IMG/VR virus record: IMGVR_UViG_3300010413_000023 | Span: 4,191 to 68,190 of that record | Direction: 5' to 3' (one strand) | Length of the DNA stretch: 64,000 nt | From: a virus | Part shown: positions 3,837 through 36,741 of the stretch, one piece after another | Numbering within the stretch: position 1 is the stretch's first letter | Layout of the letters: the number at the start of each line of letters is the position of its first letter | Program-made: the position numbers and the translations under genes | Notes under the pieces: model-generated | What the model saw: the letters and a program-made list of their open reading frames with translations, nothing else | The model's database searches: none | What the model was told of the DNA's origin: nothing

Positions 3837-4471
3837 CTGTATTCTTTCGTGCAGCGGCAATTTGTTAAACCAAGGCATGTTGTTTGTCCTGCAATTACGT
3901 TGCCCGATCCAGGTTGAGCAAAAAACCCTAAATTTTGCCATCCCATCGCGTCGGCGTCCGAACACGGGCCACAAGTCGAATCGTCGCCGACGGCGTGCCA
4001 CCGTTCTTGTGTCATCCCCTGGTCACGGGCTTGCATATCCTGAACCCGCCAGTACACCTCACGCGATGAATTGAGATACATTTTTGTGCGGGCTTCAATT
4101 TGCGCCGCTGTCAAGCTCCCGCTTTCGATCTGCTTGGCGAAATCCTTGAGATAGTTGTACTGTTCTCGAACCGAACCGCCGACCATACCCCACAAACGGG
4201 GCGTCATCTGTTCGCGTCCGCCCGCCGCCAGCATTGCCTGTTGAGCATAAGCATTCTTGATCTGGCGGGCAAATCCGGTTTGCCAATCGGCTACACTCAA
4301 GCGTTTATCGGCGAGCATTGTATTAAGCGTCGCAACCGGGTTTTCAACCGTCCGATCAACAATGCTGTCTACCAGCCCCAGGATCGTCTCGCGTCCGACA
4401 AACTGTCCCGTCGCAAGGTTGCGGTATCGCCCCGTTGTTGTTTCCCATACCCACTGGATAACGTTAGCCAC
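3833..4471 (-). CDS. Phage head morphogenesis protein (MuF/SPP1 gp7-like)
   Basis: Directly downstream of portal; C-terminal W...DDSTCGPC...NCRC motif. Confidence 0.7.
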   Translation of the reverse strand: MANVIQWVWETTTGRYRNLATGQFVGRETILGLVDSIVDRTVENPVATLNTMLADKRLSVADWQTGFARQIKNAYAQQAMLAAGGREQMTPRLWGMVGGSVREQYNYLKDFAKQIESGSLTAAQIEARTKMYLNSSREVYWRVQDMQARDQGMTQERWHAVGDDSTCGPCSDADAMGWQNLGFFAQPGSGNVIAGQTTCLGLTNCRCTKEYR

Positions 4472-6209
4472 CTGACGGTCTTGCCTCCAACATCCCCGCT
4501 AGTTCAGGAAACAACACGTTCCACGATGCCACCGCCTTGTCTATGTCATCCTCCGAGATTGTCGGATCAAGCTCCGGCAGTGGCGGCCCTGGTAGTGGTG
4601 CCAACCGTTCGATCTGCTTTTCGGCGTGAACGTGTACTGGCTGCATCCTCGCCACTTTCCCATTCTGCCACTTCTTGACACGTTCCCCCATCAGCCGTCG
4701 CGCTTTGTCCTGTGCCTCTGTGTCGTCTCGCTCGATGTCCGGCGTGATGTCCTCCGGGATGTATTCGGGCGGTATGGCGTTGTTGTCTACAAGATACTGC
4801 TGGGCCAGCATCGGATCGCCGGTGATGTCAAAGTACATCTTGGCGTTCTCAAAAAGCGTCTTGTGGATCTGCGCCTCCTCTTGCCGCTCTGCCGTTTCCT
4901 GCTGCTCGAATGCAAACTCTAACGACTCGGGCAGCACCTTGAAACGGAACTCGCGCTCGATGGCCTGCATCAAGACGCCGATGCCTTTCCCTTTCGACTT
5001 GGAGGCCATCACCGTGGCCTGTGCGCCCGTTCCCAGTGAACCCGCGCCAGCTAGTCCACCCAGGTCGAGCGGGTCGAGGCCGTATGCCGTGGCAACACGC
5101 TCTTTCAGTTCCTGGTACACTTGCGCCCGGTCGAACCCATCGGGCAGGCCGGAAAAGGAAATGAACTCGGCGCTAAACGTGCCCTCTGGGTTCAGGATGG
5201 GGATAAAGATCAGCCCCTTGTAAAATATCGCGCCCCTGCCCTTGCGATCCGACTCGCCTTGCTCGACTGCGGTTTTCATCGTCTGTTCTGAGGCGTTGAC
5301 GAAAATCATCCCCGCGCCGGGGTTCTCGCTCATTTTCTCGAACGAATACCGCTTGATGATCCTGTCCTCTTGCACGTCCCAGGCCGCGCGGGACAGGGCA
5401 CAAATGCCTTTGCCGACGAGACGGTGATCGATGCTGGGCATGTCCAGGATGCGGACAAAGTTATAGTCCCTCAACTTGTACAATCGCCCTGTGCTAGGGT
5501 TCTTGTACACGAGCGGGTATTCGTTCGATGCCGTGGGCTGCAACTGCACCGGGTCGAACACGCGCAAGTCAACGATGTCCCATGCGATGTCCGCGCCGCG
5601 TTCGATAGCCGCGAGGCCGCGTTCCGTCAATTGGTAGTCTTTGTCCACCGCCCAACCTGGGGCAGCGCGCACGACCTCGGCAACACCGCCGTTGTCTGAC
5701 TCAAGGTAAGAGCGCACAATACGAGTCAGAAAGTAATCCCATCCGACATTGCCTTCCAGGTTAAGCAGCCGGCTGTGCCATTTGTTGACGACGTTTCGCC
5801 CGCCCTCAAGCGTCCACTGCAGGCTCTGCGCTTTCTTGATCATCGTCGCTTCGGCCAGCATACACAAGGGAGCGATGACGGCAAACGTCTGCAAGTCTCG
5901 CTGCCGAGCCGGATCGGCATAGTCACGCAAGGGGATGTACTGGTCCAGCGTGCAGCCCGACCACCACAGGACTCCGCCCGAGGCGCTGGCGTTTGGATCG
6001 TCGGTCAATGGTGCTTGAATCGACGCGGGCACGGTGCGGGCTTTGTCCGCATTCAGCGCCGCCTCAAGCTCTGCCTTTGCCTGCTGGATGAATGGCGGCA
6101 GTTGCTGGGCGGGCGCTTCGGCCTTTGCCCGTTCCATCTGGTATTGCGCCTCGAACTTTTCCGCCATCTCGCGCGGCTGTCTCTGTTGTCGTCTTTTCGT
6201 CCGGCTCAT
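4464..6209 (-). CDS. Phage portal protein
   Basis: ~580 aa, between terminase and MuF-like gene; portal-like segments (VATAYGLDPLDLG, LMQAIEREFRFKVLP); likely start MSRTKRR after GGAG RBS. Confidence 0.75.
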   Translation of the reverse strand: MSRTKRRQQRQPREMAEKFEAQYQMERAKAEAPAQQLPPFIQQAKAELEAALNADKARTVPASIQAPLTDDPNASASGGVLWWSGCTLDQYIPLRDYADPARQRDLQTFAVIAPLCMLAEATMIKKAQSLQWTLEGGRNVVNKWHSRLLNLEGNVGWDYFLTRIVRSYLESDNGGVAEVVRAAPGWAVDKDYQLTERGLAAIERGADIAWDIVDLRVFDPVQLQPTASNEYPLVYKNPSTGRLYKLRDYNFVRILDMPSIDHRLVGKGICALSRAAWDVQEDRIIKRYSFEKMSENPGAGMIFVNASEQTMKTAVEQGESDRKGRGAIFYKGLIFIPILNPEGTFSAEFISFSGLPDGFDRAQVYQELKERVATAYGLDPLDLGGLAGAGSLGTGAQATVMASKSKGKGIGVLMQAIEREFRFKVLPESLEFAFEQQETAERQEEAQIHKTLFENAKMYFDITGDPMLAQQYLVDNNAIPPEYIPEDITPDIERDDTEAQDKARRLMGERVKKWQNGKVARMQPVHVHAEKQIERLAPLPGPPLPELDPTISEDDIDKAVASWNVLFPELAGMLEARPSGG

Positions 6210-8296: not shown

Positions 8297-9759
8297 CACA
8301 GCCTCAAAAACAGGCATTGATGTGCCGCCATAGATAAAGCCACGGCAGCGTCCACCTTTTGCCGTTGTTCCCGCTTGACGATTCGCAACTTGCCATTGTC
8401 GTCAAGTTTCCGATCCGCGTTGTCAATGTGCTGCCTCAAGATTTCGTTCCCGTCGTGCATCAAGCGGCGTTGGCATATCAGAGATAACAGTTGTTGATCC
8501 GCCTCAAGCCTACGCCCCGCCTGGTTGAACTCTTTGAACCACGCGACACCTTCCCTTGCCAATCTGGTCGCCATGTCGTGCAATTGAAATGGGTCATATA
8601 CCACGCACACGATGTTGTATCGCTCGGCCAACATTTTCACTACCATTTCTGGCCCCGGGTCTGTCTCTGAACCCAGAAAGTCAATCGGGTGGCCGGACGG
8701 CTCCCAGACCTGGACAAACCTAACAACGACGATCTCGTCATCTTCCGGGCATCTCGTCACCCCGACAATGGCAAAACAATCGGCCTGCATTGTGTTCTGC
8801 ACTGCGGCATCCATAGCCAGGATCATCGGATCGTGCTCTGTCAATGGCGGGATGTGTGCGAGACACGAATCCCATAATAGCATACTTGGCAAGAATCGCT
8901 GCCCCGTGTCAATGTCCTCCCATTCTGCATTCAACAACACCCGCGCCTCTGCTGCTGTCAAAGTTTGTGCCCGTTTGTCTGCGAACCCCGGCTCCAGGTT
9001 CTCGGCGTTTTCAATTGTTAAGAGCGTCACCACAAAACTGTCACGCTTGAACGTCTCACGCGGATCGTCTTTTTGCAATGGCCCGAAATACTCATACAGC
9101 CAGTGCTTGCGCGGCGTGGTCGTGATGAATATCTGCGGCGGCTCGTCGTTTGGGCCTGGAATGCGAACACGCCCGTCAAACACCTTGAGTGCCGCCGCCG
9201 TCTTGTGCCGTCTGAACTCGTCCATGTGGACGAATGACAGGTTCGGCCCTTCCCAGGCTCCGACCTCGCTCTCCTTTGCCCCTCCGCACAACAGGACGCT
9301 TTGTGTGCCCAGCGCATTGTTGAACACGAGCGAAAAGGGCTTTGTCGGCTCCCAGGTGACGGCTTGCCGGTATCGCTGGCTCTCAACGACACAATCCCAG
9401 GGACACCACCGCCGGAACTCGGGCCACAGGCTCTTTTTGAAATGTTCAAGATCGGGCGAAACCATCGCCCCTGACATTCCACGCCGCAGTCGTTCCAGCG
9501 TCTTGATAATGCCTGCTACTGACTTGCCGCCGCCCTCGCCGCCCTTGAGCAAAATGTAACGGGGCGTGTCGCTGTAAACGGCCTGATGCTCCTCAGCCTT
9601 ATGCGGTTTGTAAGGTTTGCCGGTGTCCGAGTTGATGTAGACGCCCGGCCATCCGTTGTCACTCGTGATCTGTCGGAGGATCGCCAGCGCCTGCCCTTGT
9701 TCTTGCTTTGTCAAAAAGGGCCACAACTTCGGCAATTCCCGCGCCAATTCCTGTGACAT
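8296..9759 (-). CDS. terL: Terminase large subunit
   Basis: Walker A GGEGGGKS, Walker B FVHMDE, coupling motif TTTP, RNase H-like LAMDAA...YDPFQ...KVDAAVAL. Confidence 0.92.
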   Translation of the reverse strand: MSQELARELPKLWPFLTKQEQGQALAILRQITSDNGWPGVYINSDTGKPYKPHKAEEHQAVYSDTPRYILLKGGEGGGKSVAGIIKTLERLRRGMSGAMVSPDLEHFKKSLWPEFRRWCPWDCVVESQRYRQAVTWEPTKPFSLVFNNALGTQSVLLCGGAKESEVGAWEGPNLSFVHMDEFRRHKTAAALKVFDGRVRIPGPNDEPPQIFITTTPRKHWLYEYFGPLQKDDPRETFKRDSFVVTLLTIENAENLEPGFADKRAQTLTAAEARVLLNAEWEDIDTGQRFLPSMLLWDSCLAHIPPLTEHDPMILAMDAAVQNTMQADCFAIVGVTRCPEDDEIVVVRFVQVWEPSGHPIDFLGSETDPGPEMVVKMLAERYNIVCVVYDPFQLHDMATRLAREGVAWFKEFNQAGRRLEADQQLLSLICQRRLMHDGNEILRQHIDNADRKLDDNGKLRIVKREQRQKVDAAVALSMAAHQCLFLRL

Positions 9760-32914: not shown

Positions 32915-33256
32915 TCATAGCCCCAAGTACTCCCGTGCGTACCGCAGCCGACCGTCGTGTTCGTGTCCCTCAAAGTATGCCGCCAGTTGCCGGACTTGCT
33001 CGTGCTGTGAACCGGCCCGCTGTGCTACGTGGGCAACCAAGTCAACGAATTGTGACGGTGAAAGTTGGCACAAGCACTGTTCTACGTGGAAGGAAAGCCG
33101 CCCCGACCGAAGCGCCCAAACCAGTGAATCAACAACCCCTGCGACCCGGTAATCTGAATGTCCCTCAAGCGCCAACCGGACAAAGTGCACTTCCATCCGA
33201 ACGCCCCGCCGAAATCCTAACTCTTGCCGTAATTGTTGTGCGTATGATTGTCCCAT
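32915..33256 (-). CDS. Hypothetical protein, first gene after promoter P33
   Basis: CAGAAAGAGGGACAAG-ATG start identical to 29155. Confidence 0.55.
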   Translation of the reverse strand: MGQSYAQQLRQELGFRRGVRMEVHFVRLALEGHSDYRVAGVVDSLVWALRSGRLSFHVEQCLCQLSPSQFVDLVAHVAQRAGSQHEQVRQLAAYFEGHEHDGRLRYAREYLGL

Positions 33257-33293
33257 CTTGTCCCTCTTTCTGCTCGTTTGGTTAACTGTATAC

Positions 33294-33322
33294 ATTGTAT
33301 CACACAATCAGCAGAATGTCAA
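33294..33322 (-). promoter_or_regulatory. Sigma70 promoter P33
   Basis: TTGACA-17-TACAAT with TG extension. Confidence 0.8.
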
Positions 33323-33360
33323 GGGTTTGCGCAACTAAAAAAGAAATTCTCAATAAAGTA

Positions 33361-33990: not shown

Positions 33991-34190
33991 TGTTCCCCCT
34001 TGTACTCGACGCCCGAGTCAACCAGGATGCGCCCCGTGTCGAGCATTTCGGCCATCATCCGAATGGCTGCACTCAGGTTCGGCCCGCGCAATGTTGACAG
34101 TCCGTGGTCGTCTGAAAAACGCGATAGGCGTTCAATGGTTGCCGCGTCCAGGTTGACGCTTGTGTTCTGATATGTCATGTGTCCCTCCAT
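33987..34190 (-). CDS. Ribbon-helix-helix-like regulator, divergent from tnpB
   Basis: TSVNLD..TIERL.RF...NLSAAIR. Confidence 0.6.
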   Translation of the reverse strand: MEGHMTYQNTSVNLDAATIERLSRFSDDHGLSTLRGPNLSAAIRMMAEMLDTGRILVDSGVEYKGEQ

Positions 34191-34201
34191 TTCTAATATC
34201 T

Positions 34202-34231
34202 ATTATACAATGGAATGCCGTCACCTGTCAA
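34202..34231 (-). promoter_or_regulatory. Consensus sigma70 promoter (leftward early operon)
   Basis: TTGACA-18-TATAAT. Confidence 0.8.
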
Positions 34232-34357
34232 TAGTATTTTCGTGGATATATCGCCTGACTACTTATGCGCCACTTTGCCAAAGTTCGCGTGCTACGTAAA
34301 TTCCTTATTTCGGCATTTGCGTAGCATGACAAAAGCCGCCAGATGGGGGCTAGATAT

Positions 34358-34386
34358 TTGACAATAGACCTATTTTATGGTATGAT
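34358..34386 (+). promoter_or_regulatory. Sigma70 promoter for tnpB/CRISPR unit
   Basis: TTGACA-17-TATGAT with extended TG. Confidence 0.85.
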
Positions 34387-34389
34387 TTA

Positions 34390-34522
34390 GCTGTGAGACA
34401 AAGAGAAGCCGCGATCATTTTTGAATACCACAAAAGCACAGGCTTTTTCAACAAAGCCCGGTATCATAATTTTCTCTTTGTCTCACAGCAACAGAGAACA
34501 AAACAATGATACCGGGCTTTGT
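34390..34522 (+). promoter_or_regulatory. Structured 5' leader with two interleaved perfect inverted repeats
   Basis: 18-bp IR 34390-34407/34472-34489 and 17-bp IR 34451-34467/34506-34522 in A-B-A'-B' order. Confidence 0.75.
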
Positions 34523-34539
34523 CATGTTAGGCTGAAAAT

Positions 34540-35730
34540 ATGAGAGCATATAAAGCGGAACTCGATCCAAACAACAAACAAATTGGTTTTTTTCGTCAAT
34601 GCGCCGGCGCGTCCCGTTTTGTATTCAACTGGGGATTGGCTAGGTGGCAGCAATTATATGAGGAAGGGGAAAAGCCAAGTCGGTATGGTTTGTGTAAAGA
34701 GTTCAATTCAATCAAAGACGAGCAGTGTCCGTGGATTCGAGCCTTGCCCTATGCCGTTGTCGAGGCAGCCTTCTATGATCTTGGTTTTGCATTCCAGAAT
34801 TTTTTCAGACGTGTCAAACAAGGGGCCGATAAAGCTGGTTATCCAAAATTCAAACAGCGATCAGGGAAACGATCTTTTGCTGTGCGAAGCGCAACCGTTG
34901 AGCGCGACAGAATCAGGATCACCAGCCTGGGCTGGGTGCGTCTCAAAGAAAACGGCTATTTGCCTATCGAGGGCAAGCACACGGTATATGCTAGAATCTC
35001 AGAACGTGCCGGACGTTGGTATGTAGCTATTGGAACAGAACATGAAGCAGAGCCAACAGAACTGACCGATCTTGTAATTGGCATTGACCTGGGCCTCAAG
35101 ACGCGGGCCGTATTCTCAAATGGGACATTTTTTGATGCGCCCAAAGCGACATACGAGTATGAGAAAAAGCTGGCGCGGGCAAGCCGTGAACTGTCACGCC
35201 GGAAGCGGGGCGGGCAGAATTGGAAGAAAACAAAGCTCAGAGTTCAGCGCCTGCACGCCAAGATCGCAGACGTTCGCAAGCATTGGTTACACCAGATCAG
35301 CCATTATGCAACGTATGAGTTGAGGCCAAGCGTGATTGTCCTGGAAGACCTTAACGTGTCCGGGATGGTGAAAAACAGGCACTTGGCGAAAGCTGTCAGT
35401 GATGCTGGATTTTATGAACTACGGAGACAGATCGAATACAAAGCTGCGTGGCTTGGTATCGAGGTTGTCATAGCAGACCAATGGTTTGCCAGTAGCAAAA
35501 CGTGTTCTGTGTGTGGTTGGAAAAACACAGACCTGGCACTCTCGGATCGCGTTTTCAAATGCCCAGAGTGCGGGCTTGAGATGGACAGGGACTTGAATGC
35601 GGCGCATAATCTGGCCGCTTTAGTGAACCGTCAAACAGACGGGGATTGCCTGGGGAGTTGCGGTGATGTAATGTCGTACTGTGAACCAGGAACTCGGCAG
35701 CCGAAAGCAGGCATAAGAACCGGGATGTGA
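34540..35730 (+). CDS. tnpB: RNA-guided endonuclease TnpB / compact Cas12-like effector (CRISPR-associated)
   Basis: N-terminal RAYKAELDPN HTH; RuvC-I GIDLG, RuvC-II VLEDL, Zn finger CSVCG...CPECG, RuvC-III DRDLNAA all intact; 396 aa. Confidence 0.93.
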   Translation: MRAYKAELDPNNKQIGFFRQCAGASRFVFNWGLARWQQLYEEGEKPSRYGLCKEFNSIKDEQCPWIRALPYAVVEAAFYDLGFAFQNFFRRVKQGADKAGYPKFKQRSGKRSFAVRSATVERDRIRITSLGWVRLKENGYLPIEGKHTVYARISERAGRWYVAIGTEHEAEPTELTDLVIGIDLGLKTRAVFSNGTFFDAPKATYEYEKKLARASRELSRRKRGGQNWKKTKLRVQRLHAKIADVRKHWLHQISHYATYELRPSVIVLEDLNVSGMVKNRHLAKAVSDAGFYELRRQIEYKAAWLGIEVVIADQWFASSKTCSVCGWKNTDLALSDRVFKCPECGLEMDRDLNAAHNLAALVNRQTDGDCLGSCGDVMSYCEPGTRQPKAGIRTGM

Positions 35731-35774
35731 TCGGGGTAAATCCCGATCATCACCTACGAACTGTGGGATTCAAC
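35625..35774 (+). ncRNA. omegaRNA/tracrRNA-like scaffold overlapping tnpB 3' end
   Basis: ACCGTC..GACGG hairpin, GCCTGGGGAG...GTGAACCAGGAA TnpB right-end-like motif, hairpin 35728-35749, end ...TGTGGGATTCAAC complementary to the repeat; boundaries approximate. Confidence 0.65.
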
Positions 35775-35798
35775 GTGGGCTTAATAACTGCATATAGG

Positions 35799-36073
35799 GT
35801 TGAACCCACATGCGCGTGGGGGATTGGTCTTGCGATCACTCTTTACAGGTTGATCGAAAGTTGAACCCACATGCGCGTGGGGGATTGGGTGCATCCTGAC
35901 AAAGCGGCGGTTGTCTATGCGTTGAACCCACATGCGCGTGGGGGATTGGTGTAGCACGAAAAACGAACTTTGACAAAAGCCAGTTGAACCCACAGGCGCG
36001 TGGGAGATTGGGAAGCCGCATCAGAAATGGTGCGACTTTTGTCAGTTGAACCCACATGTGCATAGGTGACTGA
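35799..36073. CRISPR. CRISPR mini-array, 5 repeats (29 bp) and 4 spacers (32,32,33,33 bp)
   Basis: GTTGAACCCACATGCGCGTGGGGGATTGG at 35799, 35860, 35921; 2-mismatch copy at 35983; degenerate copy at 36045; internal CCCAC/GTGGG hairpin. Confidence 0.95.
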
Positions 36074-36101
36074 AAGCCGCACCCTTTCGAGCACGGCTTT
36101 C
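36072..36101. terminator. Possibly bidirectional terminator hairpin after array
   Basis: GAAAGCCG-caccctttcgagca-CGGCTTTC. Confidence 0.55.
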
Positions 36102-36219
36102 CTTACTGTTCCGCCTATGGGCGGTCAGCTATTGTGACGCACATGCTAGCCTATGCGCCACGATATGACGGCGCTGGTATGCCGTCGGCCCGGCCATACT
36201 ATGTACCGGGGGAGTATTG

Positions 36220-36741
36220 TTACGCTAAATGAAGCGCTTTTGTTTTTTCACCTGCCATGTATGACCACGGGCAATTGTCGGTTGTGAAATATCCGAGACG
36301 GTATAATTCAGCATCCACACGCTCCAGTGTTTTGCTGTGCAGTCTCATTTTAGGGCCATTGGCATCGATCCATGTTGCCATGTTCCAACTGCCAGTATAA
36401 GCACGGCTTGCGCCCAGCCAATCGACCACCATTTCCCGCACATAAATTTCAGGCATTGGCAAACAGCCGTTTTCAGCCTTACTGCCCCCATGACTATGAT
36501 CGCTACGTGTGATCCAATATTCCCAGTGATGTGGATTACAGTTTTGATGATGTAGCCACGCCGCTGCAAATCCATGTGGATCGCTTTTGTCTCCAAAGAA
36601 TTGCCGATCATAGTGTGGCAATTCTGATCTTGAGAATTTGCTTATATCATGGACGATAGCACGCCATAGCGGAAACCCTGTCCGAATTGCCGCGATCAAA
36701 ACGAACCATTTGTGTTTTAGTGTTGCAAAAAAGTATCTCAT
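36220..36741 (-). CDS. HD-domain-like phage protein (DUF5662-like)
   Basis: HKWFV...HDISKF...AWLHHQNCNPHHWEYW...MP..YVREMVVDW.GA. Confidence 0.75.
   Translation of the reverse strand: MRYFFATLKHKWFVLIAAIRTGFPLWRAIVHDISKFSRSELPHYDRQFFGDKSDPHGFAAAWLHHQNCNPHHWEYWITRSDHSHGGSKAENGCLPMPEIYVREMVVDWLGASRAYTGSWNMATWIDANGPKMRLHSKTLERVDAELYRLGYFTTDNCPWSYMAGEKTKALHLA

Follow-up and report, generated by a model that had tools for sequence, protein, structure and literature searches.

Nucleases of the size of TnpB that are accompanied by a downstream array of repeats have been described as V-U* (PMC10691335) and as TranC, which is known from bioRxiv 10.1101/2025.09.28.678669 and from the PDB entries 9jfo and 9jfq. 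In these systems the repeats derive from omega-RNA, and Cas1, Cas2 and Cas4 are missing. Short spacer arrays are also carried by viruses and, according to PMC6858448, the mini-array spacers of the archaeal portogloboviruses SPV1 and SPV2 target close relatives. The targeted loci are situated near the arrays, for reasons that are given as unknown, and their orthologues in the carriers are altered by point mutations or deletions. As for CreR, bioRxiv 10.1101/2023.03.10.532045 reports that the type I-E RNA and a PAM-flanked site some 140 bp upstream of casA have 15 consecutive nucleotides in common and that the V-A site is flanked by TTTA and lies right against the −35 box of cas12a. Finally, the review PMC13565253 includes, among the theoretical forms of transposon homing, one in which co-infecting phages are cleaved.

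The phage locus analyzed here is a system of the kind that those sources describe as V-U* or TranC (PMC10691335; bioRxiv 10.1101/2025.09.28.678669), with a TnpB-sized nuclease, a downstream array, no Cas1, Cas2 or Cas4, and a repeat that comes from the omega-RNA; a predicted anti-repeat suggests a split guide. The clade to which it belongs may already be listed among the V-U* branches or TranC. It departs from TranC in that its protein is far closer to the structures of ISDra2 TnpB (E 1e-54) than to LaTranC (E 3e-21) or Cas12f, and in that it belongs to a phage-borne clade with one to seven repeat units. As in the SPV mini-arrays, the array is short, adaptation genes are missing, the spacers resemble regions near the array and the carrier's own loci are altered, here by gaps of 14, 5 and 7 nt. 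However, the SPV arrays depend on a host type I effector, belong to archaeal viruses and have had their targeted relatives found, whereas in our case the phage itself encodes the effector, the array comes from omega-RNA, the host is a bacterium and the searches for a targeted relative found none. With free-standing phage homing endonucleases and non-restorative TnpB homing, as presented in PMC13565253, the locus would share an intergenic nuclease gene specific for the relatives' allele of the same region and the distinction of self from non-self by local sequence differences. Unlike homing endonucleases, it would recognize its target through several RNA guides instead of through the protein, and both transfer and cleavage are proposals of the present work.

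The window, that is, the whole stretch of 64,000 nt that was analyzed, corresponds to bases 4191–68190 of a complete virus record of 68,190 bp with direct terminal repeats. Nearly all its long ORFs are on the minus strand, those for the terminase large subunit and a RecT-like protein among them, and the TnpB cassette runs in the opposite direction. The minus-strand operon starting at 34190 is driven by a leftward sigma-70-type promoter that matches 12 of the 12 consensus positions (34202–34231, minus strand). The tnpB promoter (34358–34386, plus strand) matches 11 of 12 and consists of TTGACA, a 17-nt spacing and TATGAT with TG upstream. It is followed by a 5′ leader of 150 nt (34390–34539, plus strand) that is strongly structured (fold z −5.7) and contains nested inverted repeats. 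Two of these, 34390–34407/34472–34489 and 34451–34473/34500–34522, are interlocked, and the leaders of the related loci L010 and L114 have in common another, shorter hairpin, which is followed by CCCTCCG. The tnpB gene itself (34540–35730, plus strand) encodes a protein of 396 amino acids. On the other side of the cassette, a terminator hairpin (36066–36100, minus strand) lies 3′ of a DUF5662 gene (36220–36741, minus strand) and is an inverted homologue of spacer 4 of the array. Matches to Rfam were all sub-threshold and irrelevant.

The Pfam domains HTH_OrfB_IS605, OrfB_IS605 and Cas12f1-like_TNB were identified in the TnpB protein, which also matched PHROG 506 at 1e-113. The RuvC triad (D183, E269 and D351) and the zinc finger are conserved, and these traits of TnpB/OMEGA systems, together with the N-terminal HTH and an omega-RNA extending over the 3′ end of the gene, were all present. 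The transposon context of such systems (TnpA, defined ends and several copies) was absent: no Y1 transposase was found in the phage, no end structures were identified and the repeat is confined to one array, occurring nowhere else in the phage genome. A direct repeat at the cassette borders (34314–34339 versus 36054–36079), seen by eye, was discarded as not significant (reached by 308 of 2000 and by 748 of 1000 shuffles). A soil metagenome from another study contained a 185-nt contig identical to the part of tnpB at 34726–34908 and almost nothing else of the window in that run.

The omega-RNA scaffold (35645–35798, plus strand) overlaps the 3′ end of tnpB and includes the anti-repeat at 35750–35774, which is predicted to pair with the array repeat. 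It leads into the array (35799–36073, plus strand), where five repeats of 29 nt alternate with four spacers (32, 32, 33 and 33 nt); the fourth repeat has two changes and the fifth is degenerate. Spacers 3 (35950–35982) and 4 (36012–36044), both on the plus strand and of 33 nt, are the ones with homology at the cassette flanks, and spacer 4 on its own makes up a hairpin that has a GAAA loop and a T-rich tail. The closest relative found was L010, a viral contig whose TnpB is 51% identical and which has four related 29-nt repeats at the same place. A search with a motif of the scaffold built from its conservation yielded five further viral loci. The number of guide units per member is one in L133 and L136/L138, two in L114, four in L010, five in the window and seven in L134, and the arrays of the window, L010 and L134 hold the same repeat family 3′ of the nuclease gene. 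The corresponding segments are 35645–36073 in the window, 3666–4020 in L010 and 4122–4312 in L114, with further ones in L133, L134 and L136/L138. In the last 90 nt of tnpB and the DNA downstream of it, the nucleotide sequence is conserved where the proteins diverge; the scaffold is conserved in six loci, with compensatory changes in 9 of 18 predicted pairs. The array repeat is the counterpart of the 3′ ends of the single-guide omega-RNAs in L114 and L133. The L114 hairpin GTGGGATTCCCAC appears opened in the window, where its two sides would be the anti-repeat and the start of the repeat, which are predicted to pair. The repeat homology, the covarying scaffold, the anti-repeat and the absence of Cas1 and of a Y1 transposase show that the array belongs to TnpB.

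Repeats of 29 nt with spacers of 32–33 nt are also the geometry of type I-E arrays, and this counts for the alternative that the locus is a type I-E-style mini-array used by a host Cascade and unrelated to TnpB. Against it, the repeat, searched by its core, had no exact match in IMG/VR or in 185,579 species genomes, and it is homologous to single-guide omega-RNA ends of the same TnpB clade.

The initial annotation of this stretch had reported that spacers 3 and 4 partially match the region between the divergent promoters, and the alignments on which it was based were reproduced. The reverse complement of spacer 3 matches 34274–34295 at 21 of 22 positions with a gap of 5 nt; 34321–34337 matches both ends of the same spacer, 6 nt and 11 nt, across a gap of 14 nt; and 34327–34339 matches the reverse complement of spacer 4 at 12 of 13 positions. 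As the promoters are at 34231–34202 and 34358–34386, these sites lie between the two −35 boxes, the nearest of them ending 18 nt before that of tnpB (the annotation had given about 20 bp) and the other starting 43 nt upstream of the leftward one. The left spacer 3 site (34274–34295, minus strand) belongs to an intergenic inverted repeat, of whose left arm it forms the outer part; the core of this inverted repeat (34290–34326) has arms at 34290–34304 and 34312–34326 that are 87% complementary and form a 13-bp stem. The right site (34321–34337, plus strand) is without the 14 central nucleotides of the spacer. Overlapping it, a short hairpin (34327–34351, plus strand) is homologous to the reverse complement of spacer 4, first at the 12 of 13 positions already mentioned and, beyond a 7-nt gap, in part; the minus strand reads here as a weak hairpin and then TTTTGTCA. 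Spacer 4, again as its reverse complement, also matches the array tail at 36066–36099, where the terminator hairpin is, with a score of 15.5. Four homologous sites, among them one in the related locus L134 (TATG), have TTTG, TTTA, TATG and TATC as 5′ flanks, the first two being one base from the match at the spacer 3 sites; for the TAM of the clade this is a lead only.

The distribution of short words joins these matches. The 8-mer GTAGCACG is present twice in the 68-kb genome, at intergenic position 34288 and in spacer 3, and the 9-mer TGACAAAAG three times, at 34327, in spacer 3 and in spacer 4. Spacers 3 and 4 thus overlap, sharing TGACAAAAG at their 3′ ends in opposite orientation, and we merged them at this 9-mer into a tile of 54 nt. 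The tile is colinear with 34321–34348 and is interrupted there by gaps of 14 nt and 7 nt, one of them central to each protospacer. Nine of the 14 nt absent from the right arm are present in the left arm, which also lacks AAAAA. Since the left arm retains most of these 14 nt, the gap in the right arm looks like a derived deletion in the window phage.

Chance was evaluated at several scales. In the 349-nt intergenic region none of 2000 shuffles, the control that the initial annotation had asked for, reached the spacer 3 score of 16; among 33-mers drawn at random from the phage genome, 4 of 3858 did. Spacer 4 was weak against the intergenic region alone (64 of 2000 shuffles), and the 15.5 of its reverse complement at the array tail was reached by none of 5000. 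When the whole window was scanned, the best match of spacer 3 was the intergenic region (16, the next being 15) and that of spacer 4 the array tail (15.5, the next being 13); spacers 1 and 2 had their best matches elsewhere and at the background of 13–13.5. The tile gave its top match of the whole window in the region between the promoters, a score attained by none of 2000 shuffles. By an arithmetic estimate, the probability that two of the four best matches fall inside about 450 of 64,000 nt is about 3e-4. Of six spacers that belong to another phage and are unrelated to these, one likewise scored 16 somewhere in the genome of the window phage. As a score of 16 is unremarkable genome-wide, the significance comes from the location and from the agreement of the parts, not from any single alignment. 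The homology of spacers 3 and 4 to the cassette flanks, with this layout, is accordingly what we observe.

It could still be proposed that AT-rich or promoter-like words resemble each other by chance, given that scores of 15–16 arise genome-wide and that −35 boxes match a word within spacer 3, TTGACA. The location, the tiling and the statistics of the rare words speak against this, and with the location and tiling tests a resemblance by pure chance is unlikely. To chance and the type I-E-style array together we assign the lowest probability among the alternatives considered.

The explanation that we prefer, with a probability of about 0.5, is that spacers 3 and 4 come from a variant allele of a related phage or of an ancestor and serve for exclusion of, or homing into, rivals, while deletions keep the carrier immune. 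In this explanation a single contiguous segment of about 54 nt would have given rise to both spacers, each of them copying a different strand; the segment would be a minus-strand intrinsic terminator and the adjoining arm of the inverted repeat in a variant allele of the cassette region. Read on the coding strand of the phage, such an allele would present a hairpin, then a U-rich tract and then a palindrome arm, and its likeliest source would be a closely related phage or a recent ancestor. The complex of TnpB and its guide, if competent for cleavage, would cut the allele in co-infecting relatives, so that the rival would be excluded or its locus converted in the style of a homing endonuclease. 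The carrier itself would not be cut: the spacer 3 target is short of 14 nt in its right arm and of 5 nt in its left arm, and the spacer 4 target is short of 7 nt in the left hairpin and differs at about one quarter of the positions in the right one. Its copies would thus be broken exactly where pairing of the guide is needed.

TnpB nucleases recognize the allele at their own insertion, and the preferred reading fits this logic. The initial annotation had offered, as one of its two interpretations, spacers taken from rival phages with escape deletions in this copy. Of the readings compared, this one agrees best with the tiling and with the 14- and 7-nt gaps; a rival with intact protospacers, its other component, was not found. 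In addition, no Cas1 was found in the complete 68-kb record, which we count against the preferred reading in what concerns spacer acquisition. A broader proposal, which we put forward tentatively and regard as doubtful, is that in a phage ISDra2-like TnpB the single flank-directed guide became an array whose oldest guides aim at the rivals' alleles of the insertion region, so that the cassette would be a homing or exclusion element and a living intermediate between the selfish targeting of its flanks by TnpB and an antiviral targeting like that of CRISPR.

If the preferred reading is true, it would link the ancestral cutting by TnpB beside its own insertion with the spacer arrays that viruses direct against relatives. 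[quoted passage not shown] If it fails, the locus would serve as a caution that partial spacer matches at the promoter of the nuclease itself need not mean autoregulation.

The same homology and deletions would be expected if the spacers had been captured from the phage's own ancestor beside the array and the resulting self-targeting had been resolved by deletions, leaving relics without a target; this alternative differs from the preferred reading only in the source of the spacers. Spacers 3 and 4 occupy the distal, oldest end of the array, where repeats 4 and 5 are decaying, as such relics would. However, spacer 4 differs from both copies in its own genome at about one quarter of the positions, which is much for a recent self-capture, and in L134 the only changes in a self-matching spacer, the fifth, are synonymous, which is more like the allele of a relative. 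We hold capture from the phage itself to be improbable.

Slightly better placed, and nevertheless unlikely in our opinion, is an origin without any targeting, in which spacer 4 is the arm of a hairpin that encloses the last repeat and serves to insulate or terminate the cassette, and the terminator-like and promoter-like words common to spacer 3 and the intergenic region come from a local duplication at the birth of the array. The stretch 36005–36112 folds on both strands into a long and imperfect hairpin (z −4.2 for the plus strand and −5.5 for the minus strand), made up of spacer 4, the last repeat in its decayed form and the tail, with which the spacer pairs; spacer 4 was also flagged as terminator-like. 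In L010 a terminator of about 55 nt is directly repeated on the two sides of the cassette (0 of 1000 shuffles), and PMC10691335 proposes that arrays arise from serial duplication of omega-RNA segments. The geometry does not agree with this origin, because both spacers have exactly the 33 nt of the spacer length of the array and lie exactly between repeats. Moreover, spacer 3 has no notable structure (−0.9 kcal/mol), and the inverted orientation of spacer 4 is not expected from a tandem duplication.

The other interpretation of the initial annotation was autoregulation by partial pairing, that is, that the crRNAs of spacers 3 and 4 would guide TnpB, in the manner of CreR, to partly matching sites where binding without cutting would tune tnpB, the leftward operon or both. 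The resemblance to CreR and CreA is that a guide partly matches near the effector's own promoter and that a T-rich motif lies 5′ of the site; here the sites lie between two strong divergent promoters, and TTTG or TTTA stands one base before both spacer 3 sites. Autorepression of Cas12a by partly matching crRNA-like RNAs beside the −35 box has been documented (bioRxiv 10.1101/2023.03.10.532045). Two other members of the clade are in agreement: there is a partial resemblance between the terminal guide of L114 and the −35 region of that locus (37 of 2000 shuffles, a marginal value), and spacer 5 of L134 covers the first codons of a gene of the same phage. However, the contiguous TAM-proximal pairing, after a mismatch at guide position 1, is of 6 nt at the right site and 8 nt at the left one, and to continue it would need a bulge of 14 nt or 5 nt, respectively. 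Both sites are outside both core promoters, at the 18 and 43 nt from the −35 boxes given above, and the window TnpB keeps its catalytic residues. Pairing of guides to the promoter is not kept in L010 or in L134 (0 of 6). Compared with CreR and CreA, the pairing in the window is broken after 6–8 nt and the design is not conserved in the related loci. Autoregulation is therefore poorly supported by the short TAM-proximal pairing, by sites off the promoters and by this lack of conservation, and we judge it quite improbable, a little less so than resemblance by chance or a type I-E-style array.

The initial annotation had also suggested a search of related phages for full protospacers, and no full protospacer of spacer 3 or 4 appeared in any collection. 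The whole array had no match among 50,697 phage records, and exact strings from spacer 3 (31 nt) and spacer 4 (26 nt) were absent from IMG/VR. A gapped pattern that fits both the spacer and the carrier forms gave 0 matches in IMG/VR. Its sole match in metagenome contigs, L094, was rejected as chance, being an unrelated coding region of low G+C content with a 4-nt gap and without similarity to the window phage. When the spacers and the intergenic region were compared by BLAST with 89 loci, there were only chance matches of 12–14 nt. The relatives reached through the DUF5662 gene had protein identities of at most 55% among the best 80 of 93, which makes them too distant for this purpose. Because no phage with intact protospacers was found, we infer the source of the spacers, be it a rival or an ancestor.

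The assembled contigs of the source sample, in which rare variants are invisible, contained neither a form lacking the cassette nor any contig joining across it. In the probable source run contigs break from 34240 to 34297, inside the intergenic palindrome, which may reflect population variation or an assembly effect and proves nothing. A contig of the source run holds a second, gapped copy of the promoter-region stretch, 33254–33353, about 3.7 kb away in the phage. A contig piece of 36 nt over 35898–35933, with flanks that are not alike, was discarded because at 80% likeness it is within chance.

Support from the clade for the preferred reading was mixed. In L134 the start of a primase-like ORF (8883–8915 in reverse-complement coordinates, G002) is matched at 31 of 33 positions by spacer 5 of the same phage, with TTATG as 5′ flank and the two mismatches at guide positions 18 and 21. 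Both differences are synonymous, which would be expected if the spacer came from a close relative. The L134 TnpB retains its catalytic residues despite this self-match. None of the six L134 spacers matched the flanks of its cassette or its own upstream region. The terminator flank of the L010 cassette is similar to spacer 3 of that array in reverse complement; the match is marginal (21 of 3000 shuffles) and is not the best of that spacer genome-wide. Against the stretch upstream of tnpB, two of the three L010 spacers were at background and the third (55 of 2000) matched the end of the upstream gene, not the promoter. Cross-targeting was not seen among the window phage, G001 and G002.

Some minor observations were made in these loci. 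The 12-mer TGTAGCACGAAA is common to spacer 3 of the window (35950–35961) and spacer 2 of L010 (3915–3926), at different positions of the spacers; the chance of this is about 1e-3 by an arithmetic estimate, and a common target was not found. The L114 cassette lies between the ends of ORFs with similar C-terminal peptides (2760–2880 and 4340–4490), as if its insertion site had been duplicated. Finally, past the terminator of the L134 array, at 2420–2470 in reverse-complement coordinates, TTGTCA is found four times with a spacing of 11 nt before a promoter-like site, and this word is TTTTGTCA, which marks the homologous sites in the window.
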